17,779 nucleotides of DNA from NCBI GenBank assembly GCA_030820665.1, contig GCA_030820665.1_4852.1. One strand, 5' to 3'. Origin of the DNA: a phage. The translations under genes were made by a program, and so were the position numbers. The notes below the pieces were generated by a model. It saw nothing but the letters and a program-made list of their open reading frames with translations. It searched no databases and had not been told where the DNA came from. Positions 1 to 14,088 of this stretch are shown piece by piece; the first letter of the stretch is position 1, and every line of letters begins with the position of its first letter.

Positions 1-168
1 GGAGTAAAAGGTGTGAGTTGGGATGCAGAGAAAAATAAATGGAAGGCGCATTGCAGGGTTTTTGGGAAAAAATATACAGTAGGTAGGTTTTCATCAAAAG
101 AATATGCTGAGAGAGCCGTGGCGGAGTTCAGAGAGAAACATCACGGGGAGTTTTTTAATCATGGCTAG
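1..168 (+). CDS. HNH-AP2 homing endonuclease, 3' end only (5' part lies left of the window)
   Basis: Frame 1 is open from base 1 to TAG 166-168; it is too short for the ORF track. Translation: GVKGVSWDAEKNKWKAHCRVFGKKYTVGRFSSKEYAERAVAEFREKHHGEFFNHG. This is the same C-terminal AP2-type module (GxKGVxW..KW.A...GK...G.F) that ends the full-length HNH ORFs at 8862-9374(-) and 10126-10656(+). Confidence 0.8.
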   Translation, partial: GVKGVSWDAEKNKWKAHCRVFGKKYTVGRFSSKEYAERAVAEFREKHHGEFFNHG

Positions 169-1585: not shown

Positions 1586-1601
1586 ATCCGCATCACCACA
1601 C

Positions 1602-1642
1602 TTGACCAATCTACACCGAGCGCATAGTATAATCTACATCAG
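1602..1642 (+). promoter_or_regulatory. Candidate sigma70-type promoter for the terL-portal insert cassette, carrying the CTACATCA element
   Basis: TTGACC is at 1602-1607. TAGTAT at 1625-1630 (17-nt spacer) overlaps TATAAT at 1628-1633, followed directly by CTACATCA at 1634-1641. AATCTACA occurs twice (1608-1615, 1631-1638). The string GCATAGTAT..CTACATCA is shared with the leftward promoter at 6386-6402. Confidence 0.5.
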
Positions 1643-1661
1643 GCTTATCGGAGATATCACT

Positions 1662-1868
1662 ATGCGCAGCTATGCAGGGTTCACACAGGAGGAGAAAGAG
1701 CAGGTTTATTCACTGGCTCGGGCTGGTGTGCCAGATGAGGTGATTTGCCGTCGGTATGACATCGACGAGGATTTCCTGCTGCGCGTTATTGATGATGTCT
1801 TCGTTAACCTGCAAGAGAAGCGCGGATATAAAGGTATCTGCTGCAAGAATGATTTTTTGAGAGGGTGA
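1662..1868 (+). CDS. Small HTH-like protein (hypothetical, 68 aa), first gene of the insert cassette
   Basis: ORF 1602-1868 trimmed to ATG 1662 (GGAGA at 1650-1654). 'FTQEEKEQVYSLARAGVPDEVICRRYDIDEDFLLRVI' has the pattern of a short helix-turn-helix, as in small transposase or sigma-region-4-like HTH domains. Confidence 0.6.
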   Translation: MRSYAGFTQEEKEQVYSLARAGVPDEVICRRYDIDEDFLLRVIDDVFVNLQEKRGYKGICCKNDFLRG

Positions 1869-1872
1869 TGTG

Positions 1873-2067
1873 ATGATTAAGATGAGCAAGATGAGCAACA
1901 GAAGCAAGGTTTGCAGGATTGCTTTATTGCCAATCTTCCTGCCTGTGTGGTTGTTATGGGTTTTATTTTCTGGGGCGAGAAATCTATTTGAGTATCTTGA
2001 ATTTTGTCAGGCAAAGGTTATACGAAAATTCCATGATGTCATTGATAAGTGGTTTCCGCTTGGTTGA
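1873..2067 (+). CDS. Small single-pass membrane protein (hypothetical, 64 aa)
   Basis: ORF 1870-2067. ATG 1873 lies 4 nt after the previous stop, with GAGGGTGA as the SD. It has a hydrophobic helix 'IALLPIFLPVWLLWVLF' after a basic N-terminus. Confidence 0.6.
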   Translation: MIKMSKMSNRSKVCRIALLPIFLPVWLLWVLFSGARNLFEYLEFCQAKVIRKFHDVIDKWFPLG

Positions 2068-2076
2068 GGTGATGTG

Positions 2077-2244
2077 ATGAAAATTGAAGAAACAGTTAAC
2101 TGCATGGCGATTAATGTGTTCACGGATTGCGATACCATTTGCGTGCAGGATTTCACTGGCGATTATGTCAGGATTGACAAACACCAAGCCGCGCAGCTAA
2201 TCGAAGTCCTGCAACGCTGGGTTAATGGTGAGGAAATTGAGTGA
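2077..2244 (+). CDS. Hypothetical protein (55 aa)
   Basis: Not in the ORF track (<60 aa). ATG 2077 is preceded by GAGGTGA at 2066-2072. Translation: MKIEETVNCMAINVFTDCDTICVQDFTGDYVRIDKHQAAQLIEVLQRWVNGEEIE. Its stop TGA 2242-2244 overlaps the next ATG, and it exactly fills the gap between two tracked ORFs. Confidence 0.55.
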   Translation: MKIEETVNCMAINVFTDCDTICVQDFTGDYVRIDKHQAAQLIEVLQRWVNGEEIE

Positions 2245-2429
2245 TGAGTGTTTATTTCATTCATGGTGAAGTGCTTGATGGTGGTGATGTTGTTACCAAG
2301 GTTTGCGCGACATCTACGGCATCAAACGCCAGTGAAGCGTTTGATTGGTTTTTGGGTTGCGAATTGGTTGTAAAGTACGAAATAAAAGGCTACGACGTCA
2401 TCATTGATAAACTGGAAAAGGTGGAGTGA
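2244..2429 (+). CDS. Hypothetical protein (61 aa)
   Basis: ORF 2241-2429. ATG 2244 overlaps the upstream TGA (GTGATG). I recognise no family. Confidence 0.55.
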   Translation: MSVYFIHGEVLDGGDVVTKVCATSTASNASEAFDWFLGCELVVKYEIKGYDVIIDKLEKVE

Positions 2430-2626
2430 TGCATTTCAAATCACTAAATACCATAAGGAACGAGATGGTTGGTGGCAAATATAAAAACCACAGAGACGAA
2501 GTAGTAACCGTTGTTAATGTTGTTGGCGCTGGCGGTGGTTATCAGGTCCATTTTAATTACGGCATGCCATACAATGTGGTTTGCGGACTTGGCAAGTTCA
2601 GGCAGCGATACCCGCATAAGGTTTAG
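2429..2626 (+). CDS. Hypothetical protein (65 aa), last gene of the insert cassette
   Basis: ORF 2426-2626. ATG 2429 overlaps the upstream TGA, with GGTGGAG as the SD. It has a glycine-rich centre 'VVGAGGGYQVHF'. I recognise no family. Confidence 0.55.
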   Translation: MHFKSLNTIRNEMVGGKYKNHRDEVVTVVNVVGAGGGYQVHFNYGMPYNVVCGLGKFRQRYPHKV

Positions 2627-2640
2627 CCATATACCATCCA

Positions 2641-2649
2641 TGCTATAAT
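2641..2649 (+). promoter_or_regulatory. Extended -10 element (TGcTATAAT) upstream of the portal gene
   Basis: A perfect TGnTATAAT lies at 2641-2649. The -35 is weak (TTTAGC at 2622-2627). The element overlaps the 5' arm of the terminator hairpin. Confidence 0.35.
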
Positions 2650-2676
2650 CCCATCCAACGTGATGGGATTTTTTAT
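2647..2676 (+). terminator. Rho-independent terminator closing the insert cassette
   Basis: A 9-bp stem pairs AATCCCATC (2647-2655) with GATGGGATT (2662-2670). The loop is 6 nt, and the 3' arm runs into TTTTTTATT. Confidence 0.8.
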
Positions 2677-2685
2677 TGGTGACAT

Positions 2686-4098
2686 ATGTCAAAAATTGAT
2701 GCACTAAACGCTTATATACGCGACCGCGTAGCGAACAATAACCGGGCGATCCAGCAGCAACGGCTTTGCGCTGGCGGGAAGAATCTGGACCAGAAGCGAG
2801 AGTTCATGTGGAAGGAACTTGGCTACCCGCAGGAAATCACCGCCGAGATGTTCCGCTATGCCTATGAGCGACACCCAGCCGCCGCCGCTGGAATTAACCG
2901 CATTATTAATAAATGTTGGCAGAAATACCCTGAAGTTGTCGAAGATGGCGAGGATGACAAGAACTCAACGACATGGGAGCTGTCCATCAACGACATGATG
3001 AAGCGCGCCTACCCGTTCATCAAGGAGGCTGATAAGCGCAACGCCATCAACCGCTATTCCGCTGTTATCCTGCAAATCCGTGACGGCAAACAGTGGAGTG
3101 AGCCTGTAGACATTACAAAAACCCGCCGCATTAAAGATAAATCCATCGCTCGCTTTATTCCGGTATGGGAAGAGCAGCTACGCGTTAGCGCATGGAATAA
3201 CGACGAAACCAGCGAAGACTACGGAATGCCTGAGATGTACGAATATCAGGAAAGCGCCGTGGAGGACTTCGATAGCGATGGCAAGCCTGAGCGTTCCGTG
3301 CAGATTCACCCTGACCGCATCATCATTCTGGCTGAGGGTAGTTTTGACGGCAGTATGTTCAGTGGCATCCCGATGTTGCGTGCTGGCTACAATAGCCTTA
3401 TCGACATGGCTAAGGTTTCAGGTAGTTCAGCAGAAGGATTCCTGAAGAATGCCAGCCGTCAACTGGCTGTTAACTACACGAAGGACAACGTAACGCCAGC
3501 AAGCCTTGCGCAGTCTATGGGTGTCGATATTGAAGAACTCACTGACATCATGAATGAGAACATCGAAGCGCTAAACTCAGGCATCGACGCAGCTATGTTC
3601 ACAATGGGGGCGGATGCAAAGGTGCTTGCCGTAACGCCAGCCGACCCGAAACCAACATGGGAAGTGGCTGCCAACCAGTTCGCTGCATCAATGGCGCTTC
3701 CGTTCACCGTCATTTTTGGTCAGCAAACCGGACGCCTTGCGAGTGATGAGGACAAGATGCAGGAGGCGATGACAGCCAAGCAGCGCCGCGAAACGTGGGT
3801 TGATTATGTCATCTCAATGTTCGTTGAGCGCATGATTCAGTTCGGCATTGTCGATAAAGCACCGGCAAATGGCTACAAGGTTAAGTGGGATGATCTGCTT
3901 GCCCCATCAGAGCTGGATAAAGCTGAATTGCTGTCCAAGCTCGCCACTGCGAACAAGTCCTTCTTTGATGCTGGTCAATCTGCACTGCTGACCGTCGATG
4001 AAGCTCGCGGCATGGTTTGCATGGAGCCAATTGAACTTGACGAAAGCTATCGCGAAGACACACCGCCGGAAGACGAAAATGAAGATACTCCGGTTTAA
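2686..4098 (+). CDS. Portal protein (DUF1073/HI1409-type family, from memory)
   Basis: 470 aa, sitting between terL and the MuF-like gene. It has an acidic C-terminal tail '[14 protein letters not shown]'. The SD is GGTGA at 2677-2681. The family assignment rests on position, size and general resemblance and needs an HMM check. Confidence 0.8.
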
Positions 4099-5029
4099 CG
4101 CAAGGCTACCCCAACCGCGCATATCGCAGAGCCTGACAGACCCGCTGGGTGCTGCGACTCGCCTGTCGAAGATGGATAAGGTGATAACGCGCAAATACAA
4201 ACAATTCAGGACTCGTGCTCTTGAGTTGTTTCGCACTATTCCGAACGGTCAGGCTAATGCAGAATCAAGCGGTCTGTATTTCTACGATTTCAGCAGTGCA
4301 CGGGCTGCCACTTTCATGGATGAGTTACAGGCGCTGATTGACGAGATTCTTCTTGAAGGTGATGATTTCGGTCACGGCAGGATGTGGGCCAATGTGTTCA
4401 TTGGTGATGCGTATCAGGCCGGAACACAAAAGGCTAACTCAGAACTGTCAAGCCTGTCTCCGGTTTACGCTGAGCAGAGGCCGATTGCCGCGATACTCTA
4501 CAGTGAGCCTTACCTGAATCGGCTCCAACTGGCTTATACGCAAGGTTACTCAGACTGGCGCGGATTGAGTGATTACTCCCGCCAGCAACTGGCATCTGTC
4601 ATTATGGAAGGCATTGCCCGTGGCGCTAATCCTCGCGATGTTGAAGCTGACATTGTTAAACGTGTTGATGTATCTCACAGCTACGCGAAACAGTTGGCGC
4701 AGACTGAAATAACCGGAACGCTACGTCAGGCTAACAGGCGGGAGGTCATTGAGGCGCGCGAAGAGTTAGGCATTGAGACGGTGATGCTGTGGCAATCGGC
4801 GTTGATGCGCACAACCCGCCAGACGCACGCAGCGCGACACGGACGGTTTTATACACCAGAAGAGATTGACACGTTTTATAGCGAGAATGGCAATAAATAT
4901 AATTGTCACTGTGCACAAACACCAGCATTGCTAATGGATGGGAAACCAGTCATTCTTGAATCCTCGCAGGAAAGGCTTGATAAACAGCGTGAAGCATGGC
5001 AATCAGTCAACAAAAAGCCCTCTAAGTGA
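4079..5029 (+). CDS. Minor head / head morphogenesis protein, Phage_Mu_F (SPP1 gp7) family
   Basis: ORF 3998-5029. The likely start is ATG 4079, a 20-nt overlap with the portal gene; ATG 4172 is the alternative. Hallmarks are '[12 protein letters not shown]', '[12 protein letters not shown]' and 'NCHCAQ', as in MuF-domain proteins. There is no extra C-terminal domain. Confidence 0.8.
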
Positions 5030-5041
5030 GGGCTTGGTTTT
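5015..5041. terminator. Bidirectional intrinsic terminator between convergent MuF-like gene and leftward operon
   Basis: AAGCCCTC (5015-5022) pairs with GAGGGCTT (5028-5035) around a 5-nt loop. It is flanked by an A-run upstream and GGTTTT downstream. The stop codon of the MuF-like gene (5027-5029) sits in the hairpin. Confidence 0.8.
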
Positions 5042-6384: not shown

Positions 6385-6441
6385 TTGATGTAGATACTAT
6401 GCACCAACAACCAATCTACGTCAACACCATTGTGATAGAAT
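6385..6441. promoter_or_regulatory. Divergent promoter region: interlocked leftward and rightward promoters plus an extended -10 for the lysis operon
   Basis: Leftward promoter: TTGACG (rc of 6419-6424), 17 nt, CATAGT (rc 6396-6401) or TAGTAT (rc 6394-6399), then CTACATCA (rc 6386-6393). Rightward promoter: TTGATG 6385-6390, 19 nt, ACCAAT 6410-6415, then CTACGTCAA 6416-6424. A second rightward element is TGaTAGAAT at 6433-6441. Confidence 0.55.
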
Positions 6442-8585: not shown

Positions 8586-8887
8586 TATTTAATCTCTCCG
8601 TTCAGTTCATTAACAATTAACGTTGCATAGCCAGCAATATCTTTCCAGCTGTCATCATAAGTCGGGTCGCCATTCAGAATGCGCCCAATCTTGTGCTGAA
8701 TCATGTCGAGCGCCTCGCGTTGACTTGGTGTGAGATTGCGCCAGCCATCTACCTTGCGCATCACATCTTTCAACTCCTGCATAATTTCAGCGCCGTCTTT
8801 GAATTTACCGTATCGACTACCGCGTTCGGTGATGAGTCGCTCTGTTGCGTCAGTATGGCGCTTATCGCCCGTGATTTGTGAACTCAT
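8585..8887 (-). CDS. Helical protein resembling the phage DUF6378-type family (function unknown)
   Basis: 100 aa. 'ERGSRYGKFKDGAEIMQEL....LTPSQREALDMIQHKIGRILNGDPTYDDSWKDIAGYATL' follows the pattern ER...YG....nf..ia.......lt...a..m...K..R......h.DSw.DiaGYA. I remember this pattern from a widespread uncharacterised phage family; the family name is from memory. Confidence 0.55.
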   Translation of the reverse strand: MSSQITGDKRHTDATERLITERGSRYGKFKDGAEIMQELKDVMRKVDGWRNLTPSQREALDMIQHKIGRILNGDPTYDDSWKDIAGYATLIVNELNGEIK

Positions 8888-9374
8888 TGTGATGCATTCT
8901 CCTGAATTCTTTTATTTTTGCTTCTGCTTCTCTTATGTCGGAAAAGTAACCAACTGTGAATCTTTTGCCATTTACTCCAACTCTTGCATGCCACTTGTTG
9001 TGCGATGAACTCCAGTTAACCCCCTTGATACCGCTAGTGTTGTTTTTGTTCATTGCTTTGTTGTGGCTATTCTCAAATTTGCTGGCCTCCCTTAAATTGC
9101 ACGCCCTGTTGTCATTGCGAATGCCATTAATGTGGTCAATCATTTCACTTGCTGGCGCGCCATGAATGCATATCCATGCCAATCTGTGAGCAAGAAAAGC
9201 CCTACCGCAAAGAATTATTTGCACATATCCATCTGGCTTTAAGTAGCCAGCCACACTCCCTTTTTCTGCAATCCTATTCCTTGTCTTTAGCCATTTAAAT
9301 TCCCCAGTTAGTGGATTGTAGTAAAGGTAACTCAATATAAACTCCCTACTCGGCTCATCTCTCCTATGCCTCAT
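8862..9374 (-). CDS. HNH homing endonuclease with C-terminal AP2 DNA-binding domain
   Basis: 170 aa. The HNH_3-type core is 'AHRLAWICIHG....IDHINGIRNDNRACNLREA'. The AP2 module is 'SGIKGVNWSSSHNKWHARVGVNGKRFTVGYFSDIREAEAKIKEFRRMHHNEF'. It overlaps the downstream gene by 26 nt and is visibly more A/T-rich than its neighbours. Confidence 0.9.
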   Translation of the reverse strand: MRHRRDEPSREFILSYLYYNPLTGEFKWLKTRNRIAEKGSVAGYLKPDGYVQIILCGRAFLAHRLAWICIHGAPASEMIDHINGIRNDNRACNLREASKFENSHNKAMNKNNTSGIKGVNWSSSHNKWHARVGVNGKRFTVGYFSDIREAEAKIKEFRRMHHNEFTNHGR

Positions 9375-9601: not shown

Positions 9602-9654
9602 ATCTTGACGTTTCTACATCATTTAGTCAATGCTTGTTGACGTAGATTGTACCA
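9602..9654. promoter_or_regulatory. Divergent regulatory region with paired CTACRTCA / TTGAYGTAG elements
   Basis: Leftward: extended -10 TGgTACAAT (rc 9646-9654), followed by CTACGTCAA (rc 9637-9645). A second leftward candidate is TTGACT (rc 9625-9630), 17 nt, CAAGAT (rc 9602-9607). Rightward: TTGACG at 9605-9610 and 9637-9642 and TTCTACATCA at 9612-9621, but I could find no convincing rightward -10. Confidence 0.45.
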
Positions 9655-9934: not shown

Positions 9935-10129
9935 ATGGCGCATGACGAACTGTACGAAGAATCGTTAATCCAGAGGTTGAATGAAGTTGAGCGCACTCGC
10001 GAATGGCTGGAGTGCGAGTTACGAGAAGTGCGCAACCGCCTGCAACGCAAGCGCAGTCAGCAAAGAGATGTCATCGACTGGTCTGGGGGTACACCTAAAT
10101 TTAACAATCTGGGAGAATGGTTGAAATGA
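9935..10129 (+). CDS. Hypothetical coiled-coil protein (64 aa)
   Basis: GGGAGA lies upstream of ATG 9935. 'LNEVERTREWLECELREVRNRLQRKRSQQRD' looks like coiled coil. The stop overlaps the HNH start (ATGA). Confidence 0.55.
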   Translation: MAHDELYEESLIQRLNEVERTREWLECELREVRNRLQRKRSQQRDVIDWSGGTPKFNNLGEWLK

Positions 10130-10656
10130 GCAACATTAGTAAGGAAAGCATTTTAAAGTTCCTCCAGCATGATGAAAATACAGGAAACTTTCTATGGATT
10201 GATAATTTCTCAAGAAAATCAAAGAAAGGGAAGGTGGCTGGAGGTATTACATCGCATGGGTATTGGAGAATTCAACTCCCCATCGGGAGGTTTTACGCAC
10301 ACAGAATGGCGTGGATTGTTTGCAATGGAGATATACCAAACGGATATGAGATTGATCACATAAATGGGAACAAGAAAGATAATCGCATCAGCAACCTAAG
10401 ATTGGTCACAAGAGGTCAAAATGTTATGAATGTAGGCGTGAAAAACAATAATACAAGCGGAGTTAAGGATGTTGTTTGGGACTCTTCGCGAGAAAGGTGG
10501 AGGGTTCAAATTACAGCCAATGGCAAGCATTATTATGGAGGTAGATTCTCGTCAATAACACAAGCAAAAGAGGAGAGGAACAGGCTCATAAAGATGGTTC
10601 ACGGGAAATTTTTGAATACAAAAGGTGAGCAATATGACACTACTAATGAACGATGA
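10126..10656 (+). CDS. HNH homing endonuclease with C-terminal AP2 DNA-binding domain
   Basis: ORF 10117-10656. ATG 10126 is preferred (GGGAGA at 10111-10116, 9-nt spacing). Motifs are 'AHRMAWIVCNG....IDHINGNKKDNRISNLRLV' and 'SGVKDVVWDSSRERWRVQITANGKHYYGGRFSSITQA'. It is a diverged paralogue of 8862-9374(-) and is A/T-rich; a hand count of one 60-nt line gives about 42% GC, against about 57% for a line in the decoration-like gene (14101-14160). Confidence 0.9.
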   Translation: MSNISKESILKFLQHDENTGNFLWIDNFSRKSKKGKVAGGITSHGYWRIQLPIGRFYAHRMAWIVCNGDIPNGYEIDHINGNKKDNRISNLRLVTRGQNVMNVGVKNNNTSGVKDVVWDSSRERWRVQITANGKHYYGGRFSSITQAKEERNRLIKMVHGKFLNTKGEQYDTTNER

Positions 10657-12535: not shown

Positions 12536-12656
12536 GAACATAATCCCTATCACTTACTTTCTCACGCTATACGCACTCACCAATTCGCCATTGTTTGCAC
12601 TGGCTACCGCCTCGTGGTGCTATATCTCCCTGTGTTATAATTCGACCACAAACTAA
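12534..12656 (+). CDS. Possible very hydrophobic peptide (40 aa)
   Basis: Not in the ORF track. GAGGT lies 5 nt upstream. Translation: MNIIPITYFLTLYALTNSPLFALATASWCYISLCYNSTTN. It lies in an otherwise non-coding 194-bp spacer, and promoter-like elements overlap its 3' end, so coding status is uncertain. Confidence 0.3.
   Translation: MNIIPITYFLTLYALTNSPLFALATASWCYISLCYNSTTN
12618..12641 (+). promoter_or_regulatory. Tandem extended -10 promoter candidates upstream of the scaffold/capsid genes
   Basis: TGcTATATC at 12618-12626 and TGtTATAAT at 12633-12641. The second lies 32 nt before ATG 12673. The -35 regions are weak. Confidence 0.45.
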
Positions 12657-12672: not shown

Positions 12673-14088
12673 ATGATTGTCAAGATTGGCGATAAGTGGG
12701 TGGTCAAGTCGAAAGACGGCTCACAGCAATTTGGTGAATACGACACAGAAGAGGCAGCAAAAAAACGCCTCGCAGAAGTCGAAGCGTTTAAGCACATGAA
12801 TAATAAATTGCAGGTTAACGTCCTGACAACCATCAATTCAGCCAGCAATATCAGTGAGCAAATCATTGATGGCGACCCGCACTACGTAATTAAAAACGTC
12901 GTGCCAGTGGTTGATGATGTTGTGATGAATAACGGCCTGTATCCGGGAGAGGAAATCCGCAAGAGCTATCACGGACTTGATGGTAAACCTGCACCATACA
13001 ATCACCCGATGATTGACGGTAAATATGTCTCTGCAAGCATGACGCGCGCAGCTAACCAGTTCAGCGTTGGCGCATGGATTGAAAACTCATCTCATGACGG
13101 CAGCAAGGCGCTGGTTGACCTGAAGGTAAACAAAGTCATCGCTGAACGCTCCGAGAAAGGTCAGGAGTTGCTTGGTCGCATTGAAGCGCTAATGAACTCC
13201 GCAGAAGGCGCAGAGCCAATCCATGTATCCACCGGCTTATTGCTCAACCGCGAGGCTACGGAAGGCACAAGCAAAGGCAAAAAATACACATGGATTGCGC
13301 GCAACATGGAATGGGACCATCTCGCCATCCTGCCGCCGGGAGTGCCAGGAGCTGGAACGCCAGAAGATGGTGTTGGAATCTTTGCCACCAACGGCGAGCA
13401 AATCGAACGCATCACCGTAAACCTTGAGGACTCAACCGTGCCAGACGAAAGCGCCAACAAGATTAATTATAAATCGTGGCTACATAAGGCCATCAACTAC
13501 ATCACCAACAAATCAGATTTGTCGTTTGAGAACATCAGTGAGCAGATTCGCCAGATTCTGAAGGCTGAAGTTGGCGAGGATGTCTGGCCTTATATTGTGG
13601 CTGTGTACGACGACCGCGTCGGATTTGAAATCAAAGGCCAGATTTTTCAGCAGCTCTACATCGTTGAAGATGATGTGGTAAAATTGGTCGGTGAGCGGGT
13701 CAAGGCTGTTTATAAAACTGAACTTGAGCCGGTAAAATCAACTGAAGGGGAAATCTCAATGACGAACGAGGAATTACAAGCGGCAGTAGCGGAAGCTACC
13801 AAGTTGGCCGTTAATGAAGCCCTCAAGCCGGTTCAGGAAAAGCTTGATTCCGTCACTGCTGAACTGACCGATGTTAAAGGCAAGCTCGCAGCCAACGCCG
13901 AGCAGGAAGAAACCGCGATGCGTGCTGCTATCATCGCGGAACTGAAACTGCCGGAATCCGCTGTGAATGCGCTGAAAGGCGAAGCACTGCGTGAAACCTA
14001 TGCGTTGACCAGCAAGCCTGCTGCGCTGAAGGGTGGCTTCCAGCCGAACCACGCTGATGACGATTTTGATATGGAGGCACCGGAATAA
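12673..14088 (+). CDS. Head maturation protease/scaffold-like protein (DUF2213-like N-terminal region plus coiled-coil C-terminal scaffold domain)
   Basis: ORF 12595-14088 trimmed to ATG 12673 (GGAGAG at 12660-12665). It sits immediately upstream of the decoration-like and capsid genes. The C-terminal ~110 aa are Ala/Glu/Lys-rich coiled coil ('[48 protein letters not shown]') ending in an acidic tail. The family name is from memory. Confidence 0.7.

Follow-up and report, generated by a model that had tools for sequence, protein, structure and literature searches.

We examined the small genes that lie between terL and portal in a 17,779-nucleotide stretch of phage DNA (GenBank assembly GCA_030820665.1, contig GCA_030820665.1_4852.1); this whole stretch is referred to as the window. 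The gene terL occupies positions 161(104)-1585 on the + strand and matches Terminase_3 and Terminase_3C; portal follows at 2686-4098 on the same strand and matches Phage_portal_3. The 1.1 kb between them, here called the island, carries a predicted sigma-70-type promoter, 5 open reading frames (ORFs), and a predicted intrinsic terminator, all facing portal. ORF1 (1662..1868, + strand) encodes an acidic protein of 68 amino acids (aa) with an isoelectric point (pI) of 5.0. It is followed on the + strand by ORF2 (1873..2067), a basic small membrane protein of 64 aa; ORF3 (2077..2244), a very acidic product of 55 aa and pI 4.3; ORF4 (2244..2429), an acidic product of 61 aa and pI 4.5; and ORF5 (2429..2626), a basic product of 65 aa encoded by the last gene of the island. 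An initial annotation, made from the sequence letters, had given the end of terL, the start of portal, the 1.1 kb between them, and 5 ORFs joined by TGATG overlaps or gaps of 4-9 nt; all of these coordinates are borne out.

Conservation of the terL-portal island

The window is DNA of a small siphophage. It is 99.3% identical to Escherichia phages HC6, 6947, and HC8A, and has 185 related records; its relatives are Skatevirus, Macdonaldcampvirus, and unclassified neighbours. We compared 34 loci from IMG/VR and GenBank, each with terL and portal both placeable. ORF1 is present in 34/34 and heads the + strand genes of the island without exception. The genes behind it come and go: ORF2 is found in 4/34 loci, ORF3 in 17/34, ORF4 (the commonest cargo gene) in 25/34, and ORF5 in 7/34. 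More than 40 other small families replace ORFs 2-5 across the loci, in roughly conserved order. This comparison of terL-portal junctions, suggested by the initial annotation, identifies ORFs 2-5 as accessory, since their presence or absence is polymorphic among the loci.

The DNA itself follows the same division. With the sequence between terL and portal as a blastn query, only positions 1-291 of the query (promoter and ORF1) and its last ~45 nt (terminator) are shared across the group. Promoter and ORF1 match 152 records, all at >=90% identity; terL matches 124, with identity dropping to 60-80%. Judged by these matches, promoter and ORF1 are better conserved than terL itself. The G+C fraction is 0.437 in the island, 0.451 in terL, 0.515 in portal, and 0.473 in the window.

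The order terL, ORF1, small genes, portal extends well beyond close relatives. It recurs in 2 metagenomic loci, L039 and L040, where ORF1 is 65-68% identical; in Klebsiella phages, with an ORF1 homologue of the 54%-identical kind; and in L046, with an ORF1 homologue of the ~35%-identical kind and a cargo that includes a tail-fibre gene. In L040, the large terminase (446-1750) belongs to Terminase_6, not Terminase_3, and stands beside the same ORF1-portal-MuF arrangement; the terminase module appears to have been swapped next to a conserved island frame. The initial annotation had described an autonomous cassette wedged between 2 genes that are normally adjacent. Because the same layout recurs in close and distant relatives, this picture fails for the group: the gap between terL and portal measures 535-2390 nt in the 34 loci and is never zero, and promoter, ORF1, and terminator are fixed in every relative examined. 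The idea of a self-contained transcription unit survives in part. The interval has the appearance of a single transcription unit, with promoter and terminator both conserved well beyond neutral expectation; the promoter is not private to the island, and the terminator is part of a composite element. The 1.1 kb is therefore probably the local copy of a conserved small-gene island of the Skatevirus, Macdonaldcampvirus, and Roufvirus-like/Klebsiella-phage group, in which a fixed frame surrounds an exchangeable payload.

In many relatives, a further small gene, read leftward, sits between terL and the ORF1 promoter (2013-2165(-) in L002/L004, 2982-3335(-) in L011, and others). Its promoter is of the TTGACGTAGAT type and stands back to back with the ORF1 promoter; the gene is absent from the window and from HC6.

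Genome-reduced mutants show which parts of the island a phage can lose. The Salmonella phage seszw, a Skatevirus, was reduced by CiPGr and many mutant genomes were deposited; in that work, a gene absent from isolated mutants is counted as non-essential (PMC9825161). The seszw island has the same locus and frame as that of the window, with a promoter and ORF1 stretch ~95% identical. It consists of gene 62 (leftward), gene 63 (the ORF1 homologue), gene 64 (a 63-aa protein), and gene 65 (an HNH endonuclease), and so differs from the window in its cargo and in the extra leftward gene, as well as in the sequence of the terminator hairpin. The smallest mutant, of 36,655 bp, has lost genes 64 and 65 and kept gene 62, gene 63, the promoter, and the terminator/promoter element. 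Coverage of the island in the deposited genomes is 100, 66, 59, or 53%; these classes show that many mutants have lost cargo, either gene 65 alone or gene 64 as well. Promoter and ORF1 are intact in 70/70 records of >=99% identity, and terL is present in the same number. Cargo at this position is dispensable for lytic growth in the laboratory, as shown for seszw genes 64/65, and ORF1 is probably indispensable.

The ORF1 product and the cargo genes

Nucleotide variation in ORF1 falls mostly at third codon positions. Its 38 homologues encode proteins that are 91-100% identical and comprise 35 distinct nucleotide sequences; on tblastn coordinates, variable sites at the 3 codon positions of these close homologues number 10/9/50. 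The sequence record is that of a core gene under very strong purifying selection. Its family is very small, with only 16 members recovered when 1.84 billion representative proteins were searched with a profile; a search of 5.8 billion proteins with ORF1, ORF4, and ORF5 found narrow, unannotated, phage-restricted families only. IMG/VR yielded no loci for P0063 and P0061, the most distant relatives of ORF1.

The AlphaFold2 (AF2) model of ORF1 is all-helical, with a predicted local distance difference test (pLDDT) score of 81.6. Its predicted three-helix fold superposes on members of the LuxR/GerE and sigma-70 region 4 groups, and we read it as a helix-turn-helix (HTH) of the sigma-region-4/LuxR type. 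The earlier description of the first product as HTH-like is thus upheld at the level of predicted fold only; membership of a named sequence family is not supported, because no family profile matches. ORF1 resembles stand-alone HTH domains of these groups (GerE, 1fse; NarL, 1je8; SigW domain 4, 6jhe) in size, ~65-75 aa, and the pattern LARAG-VP-DEVICRRY-DID-EDFLLRV fits the HTH register in our reading of the alignment. It differs from them in being acidic, in a putative recognition helix poor in basic and polar residues, and in the lack of a fourth helix. Two other identities were considered and set aside. ORF1 falls short of the length of a small terminase, and the start of terL is overlapped by another gene, of 148 aa; a head-completion protein like gpW of lambda was suggested only by a similar size and position, and the ORF1 model is all-helical.

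By standard criteria, all 5 ORFs are real genes. Each has a purine-rich ribosome-binding site (RBS) 6-13 nt upstream, and each product matches a PHROG family of unknown function, with E values from 7e-5 to 1e-47; the families of ORFs 2-5 are phrog_20630 (E 7e-5), phrog_13627, phrog_26739, and phrog_36357, respectively. Variable sites by codon position are 9/4/16 in ORF2, 42/37/54 in ORF3, 46/43/58 in ORF4, and 10/5/30 in ORF5, and the excess at third positions supports + strand coding of all 5 ORFs. In HC6 (L001, 3202-3399), the GenBank record lays a minus-strand ORF, HC6_0009, over the ORF5 homologue; this annotation is probably wrong, because the 10/5/30 variation favors the + strand gene.

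ORF2 has the single transmembrane helix that the initial annotation assigned to it, at residues 13-31 with a mean Kyte-Doolittle value of 2.21. The statement that the last 3 products match nothing recognizable holds insofar as no family of known function was found; each does match a PHROG family. Searches of the 5 products against Pfam, NCBIfam, and PADLOC (defence systems) gave no usable match, and Rfam gave none over the whole window. ORF4 has a confident AF2 model (pLDDT 94.7), with a predicted beta-hairpin, 2 helices, and a strand, and its 39 homologues all lie on phage-sized contigs. Foldseek found no significant match of this model in the PDB; the best, at E 0.09, were chains of the crAss001 and P74-26 portal-vertex structures, a resemblance on which we do not build because ORF4 is missing from 9/34 relatives. 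The 12 homologues of ORF5 all fall inside this phage group.

In relatives, the cargo pool includes HNH-AP2 homing endonucleases, a PAPS-reductase-like protein, and a HigA-like HTH_3 protein. This fits a site that collects selfish and host-interaction genes. Homing endonucleases are numerous in these phages: the window holds HNH_3 genes or fragments, with or without AP2, at 13-168(+), 8862-9374(-), and 10117-10656(+), and further HNH genes occur among the island cargo of relatives, seszw gene 65 being an example.

The boundaries between cargo genes carry short direct repeats. The linker GGTGATGTGATGA is an exact 13-nt repeat that flanks ORF2: the left copy (1864..1876, + strand) spans RBS, ORF1 stop, and ORF2 start, and the right copy (2068..2080, + strand) lies at the ORF2/ORF3 boundary. 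The sequence GTGATGTGATG occurs 12 times in the loci, 12/12 inside islands. In L019 and L025, ORF1 is followed directly by the ORF3 family, which is the product expected from recombination between GGTGATGTGATGA copies. A second linker, AGGTGGAGTGATG (2419..2431, + strand), spans RBS, stop, and start at the ORF4/ORF5 boundary, and marks the site of a 390-bp insertion or deletion relative to HC6. There (L001, ~2787-3189), AGGTGGAGTGATG occurs twice and flanks 2 extra small genes (390 bp); the window has one copy and lacks these genes. In a comparison with a 99.3%-identical phage, the difference reads as a recent gain or loss at an RBS/stop-start linker. Among direct repeats of >=11 nt inside islands, 8/30 have both copies at gene boundaries, vs. 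0.7% by chance. Cargo gain and loss, as suggested by these sequences, is most simply explained by recombination between linkers. The island is not an integron-like cassette array: no integrase or recombinase was found among the island genes of the 34 loci, and in place of structured attC sites the repeats are RBS linkers of 11-16 nt.

Predicted regulatory elements at the island edges

The island promoter (1602..1641, + strand) is predicted from a promoter scan and from conservation. It has a -35 hexamer TTGACC (1602-1607), a 17-nt spacer, and a -10 hexamer TAGTAT (1625-1630), with a predicted start site near 1637-1640. The initial annotation had proposed a TTGACC promoter carrying a recurrent element; the scan recovers it, and it is conserved among relatives. 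In the promoter region (1598-1661), 32/64 positions are invariant across 32 distinct relatives, including all of ATCTACATC; by comparison, the third codon positions of ORF1 are invariant at 18/68 only. Relatives with a 65-68%-identical ORF1 keep the layout TTGACC-17-TAGAAT-CTACATCA despite a different spacer sequence. TATAAT at 1628-1633 was considered as the -10 and rejected: the spacer would be 20 nt, and many relatives lack one A there.

Two copies of AATCTACA(C/T)C flank the spacer and the -10, and persist in relatives with a changed spacer. Box 1 (AATCTACACC, 1608..1617, + strand) comes directly after the -35 and is conserved in relatives, with AATCCACATC at this place in L039 and L040; it is a possible operator. 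Box 2 (AATCTACATCA, 1631..1641, + strand) comes directly after the -10, belongs to a TCTACRTCA family, and is invariant in 32 sequences.

These boxes are not confined to the island. The recurrent promoter element of the initial annotation, CTACATCA, indeed occurs 5 times in the window vs. 0.51 expected; only the copies at 1634, 6386(-), and 9614 are in promoter regions. TCTACRTCA is found 5 times in the window vs. 0.21 expected and 12 times in the HC6 genome (L038) vs. 0.57 expected, and all of these sites are in intergenic, mostly divergent, promoter regions. Outside the island, the box (reverse complement TGAYGTAGA) stands at 6386-6394(-), 6415-6423(+), 9613-9621(+), and 9638-9646(-) of the window; the promoter at 6386(-) has the same design as that of the island. 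Boxes are often paired, some overlapping the -35 as TTGACGTAGATTG and others placed just after the -10. The TCTACRTCA box appears to serve a phage factor, as an operator or as an extended promoter element. The boxes also resemble extended -35 elements (TTGACGTAGA), which would fit a sigma-4-like binder. Because the box belongs to a genome-wide promoter set, the island promoter is not private to the cassette. In HC6, moreover, some box regions precede rightward operons with lysis or tail genes, so early expression of the island is not to be assumed.

A perfect 9-nt inverted repeat (GCGCATAGT / ACTATGCGC, 1620-1628/1659-1667) links the -10 region to the start codon of ORF1, and could mask this start in RNA that reads through from terL. 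Since L039 and L040 lack this repeat, we do not regard it as a conserved regulatory hairpin.

The downstream edge carries the predicted intrinsic terminator (2647..2677, + strand), with a 5' arm at 2647-2655, a loop at 2656-2661, and a 3' arm at 2662-2670, followed by a T-run. The 9-bp stem and T-run had been noticed in the initial annotation. A scan recovers the hairpin, which folds at -16.5 kcal/mol (z -2.6), and compensatory variants attest its conservation: the stem is kept in 3 pairing-preserving forms (AATCCCATC/GATGGGATT, AATCCCTC/GAGGGATT, and AATCCCC/GGGGATT). In seszw, an unrelated hairpin sequence occupies the same place.

This element is more than the simple terminator of a cassette, as it had first been taken to be. 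It is a composite with a conserved extended -10 that faces portal (TGCTATAAT, 2641..2649, + strand), a putative portal promoter; the 5' arm of the hairpin shares 3 nt with the end of the -10 hexamer. TGnTATAAT stands before portal in every relative, including seszw (different hairpin), Klebsiella phage XY3, L040, and L046 (no hairpin). The extended -10 is probably the promoter for portal, with a predicted start near 2656, within the terminator hairpin. The form TGNTATAAT occurs only twice in the window, before portal and at 12633-12641; the latter copy (TGTTATAAT) lies ~30 nt ahead of a large head gene (12673-14088). This suggests that structural genes of this phage use extended -10 promoters. 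In seszw (smallest mutant, L042 3925-3965; also L006), the 3' arm of the terminator hairpin contains the portal RBS, GAGGG, so that only transcripts initiated at the extended -10 would leave this RBS free.

Interpretation, rival explanations, and known systems

The features above can be assembled into a working model. A host-type (sigma-70) promoter with 2 AATCTACA boxes, part of the genome-wide TCTACRTCA family, would drive the island. ORF1 may act as a transcription regulator, either through binding to the boxes, those of its own promoter included, or through binding to RNA polymerase. The terminator would stop transcripts of island or terL origin. Those initiated at the extended -10 would begin in the hairpin loop, ~7 nt past the -10; lacking the 5' arm, they would escape termination and continue into portal, a route proposed from sequence and conservation. 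The payload, here a membrane protein (ORF2), 2 acidic proteins (ORF3 and ORF4), and a basic protein (ORF5), would be translationally coupled, and may be gained and lost by recombination at the RBS/stop-start linkers, for which one indel and an overall statistical enrichment speak. Its role is most likely conditional and could lie in host interaction, exclusion of other phages, or counter-defence; an anti-defence role of the cargo is possible but speculative.

A bolder version of this model goes further than we would, and we think it unlikely. In it, ORF1 founds an undescribed family of very small phage sigma-region-4-like factors, indispensable to the phage, which recognize the TGAYGTAGA/TCTACRTCA boxes at nearly every operon promoter, set the transcription programme, and autoregulate the island; the frame would then serve as an "expression dock" for interchangeable accessory genes.

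Several results weigh against the reading of a fixed, regulator-headed frame with dispensable cargo. ORF1 has no Pfam family even at E up to 1, GerE and Sigma70_r4 included, and in this it differs from those families; NCBIfam gives no relevant match, PDB sequences give chance-level matches only, whether searched with the single sequence or with a 16-sequence profile, and Foldseek finds nothing significant for the model in the PDB (best E 0.88). The putative recognition helix, DEDFLLRVIDD, has one basic residue in a protein of pI 5.0, which is unusual for a sequence-specific DNA binder; for this reason DNA binding by ORF1 is not to be assumed, and ORF1 may well bind RNA polymerase or another protein instead. 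The genome encodes further small candidate regulators at other places, which leaves the boxes untied to ORF1. A consensus promoter scan of the window performs at chance level (27 sites vs. 25.7 expected), and support for the island promoter therefore comes from conservation. Indeed, both promoters, their start sites, and the terminator are read from sequence and conservation, and a literature search turned up no transcriptome from this phage group. That the seszw mutants retain ORF1 could reflect inefficient targeting. Finally, seszw genes 64 and 65 are of other families than ORFs 2-5, and the dispensability of the cargo in the window is an extrapolation.

The interval could instead be a self-contained moron, or an anti-defence or host-takeover cassette, acquired whole, with ORF1 as its private regulator and with early expression directed against host immunity. 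Much about the cargo agrees with this: ORFs 2-5 are accessory and polymorphic, laboratory growth does not need cargo at the site, ORF3 and ORF4 resemble many inhibitors of host proteins in their small size and high acidity, and the cargo of relatives has a HigA-like antitoxin-type HTH and a PAPS-reductase-like gene. The promoter is also of host type. The frame, however, does not: ORF1, promoter, and terminator form an invariant core that was not acquired with the cargo, and the promoter type is common to other operons, in HC6 including ones that read into tail or lysis genes, so that it is neither private nor demonstrably early. No ORF matches a family of known function. We regard this explanation as doubtful. 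It stems from the moron architecture seen by the initial annotation. A moron would be present or absent as a whole, its signals included; promoter, ORF1, and terminator were instead found in 34/34 loci and in distant relatives. Morons of lambdoid phages are single units acquired with their own regulatory signals and are typically expressed from the prophage (the Juhala/Hendrix concept, summarised in PMC2839356). The island is like them in placing extra genes between conserved structural genes, in its predicted promoter and terminator, and in presence/absence variation. It differs in having its signals fixed in the phage backbone and a core gene at its head, with variation confined to ORFs 2-5; the phages that carry it are also reported as lytic in the papers found.

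Position and constancy could also be taken as signs of a structural role, with ORF1, and possibly other ORFs, as a packaging or head-assembly factor: a small-terminase-like HTH or a portal-associated completion protein. ORF1 keeps its place beside portal and terL over wide divergence, even where terL is of another family; it is a core gene, retained in all of the reduced genomes; the best, non-significant, Foldseek matches of ORF4 are small chains of phage portal-vertex structures; and no small terminase was identified by family, the gene before terL matching only phrog_9747, of unknown function. Yet a box promoter of its own, dispensable co-transcribed cargo, and a terminator before portal would be odd for a stoichiometric assembly factor. 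At 68 aa, ORF1 lacks the oligomerisation core of small terminases, the 148-aa gene overlapping the terL start holds the usual terS position, and ORF4 is missing from 9/34 relatives. A packaging role strikes us as improbable, somewhat more so than the moron explanation. Least credible by far is a reading of the region as a non-coding spacer, in which some or all of the small ORFs would not be genes. Their short length (55-68 aa) and the lack of matches to families of known function are all that recommends the idea; every ORF shows a third-position excess of variation and an RBS, all 5 match PHROGs (E 7e-5 to 1e-47), ORF4 has a confident fold (pLDDT 94.7), and Rfam matches are lacking.

With the conserved island as the preferred reading, the nearest parallel is found in T4-like phages. 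Their hyperplastic regions contain promoter-early stem-loop (PeSL) cassettes (Arbiol, Comeau, Krisch 2010, PMC2839356; Comeau et al. 2014, PMC4122927). A composite of sigma-70-type promoter and stem-loop terminator, with the stem-loop beside the -10 or overlapping it, insulates the cassette from its neighbours and restarts transcription, and short conserved sequences act as recombination points (PMC2839356, PMC4122927). The island likewise consists of small, mostly orphan, non-essential genes between core blocks. It appears to combine a sigma-70-type promoter and a stem-loop in one element, with the stem-loop overlapping the -10 and the arrangement kept where the hairpin sequence differs, and it has conserved short sequences as candidate recombination points. 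That the flanked genes are non-essential is known from seszw genes 64/65 and extrapolated to ORFs 2-5 from presence and absence. In contrast to PeSL cassettes, the island has one composite, at its downstream edge, rather than one flanking every gene; its internal exchange points are 11-16-nt RBS/stop-start linkers; and at its head stands ORF1, an invariant core gene without counterpart in PeSL cassettes. The phages themselves also differ, being small siphoviruses unrelated to T4.

The island is an ordinary, though neatly organised, phage accessory-gene island, and current views of phage genome organisation are not overturned. Three features deserve attention: ORF1, near-invariant and probably indispensable; the composite of terminator and promoter ahead of portal; and the boxes that recur at the phage's promoters. 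These raise several questions. Does a terminator that overlaps a promoter insulate an accessory island from flanking structural genes? Do linkers serve as shuffling points for small genes? Does a 68-aa sigma-4-like protein control the box promoters? The group is presented in papers as a source of therapy and biocontrol candidates, and for the engineering of these phages of E. coli, Salmonella, and Klebsiella, ORFs 2-5 probably offer non-essential DNA. ORF1 is probably best left alone, and the 45-nt element would be needed for continued expression of portal.

Downstream of the portal region, a GC-rich hairpin at 5015-5035 has T-runs on both strands. It lies after the MuF-like gene, where rightward and leftward genes converge, and is likely a bidirectional terminator.

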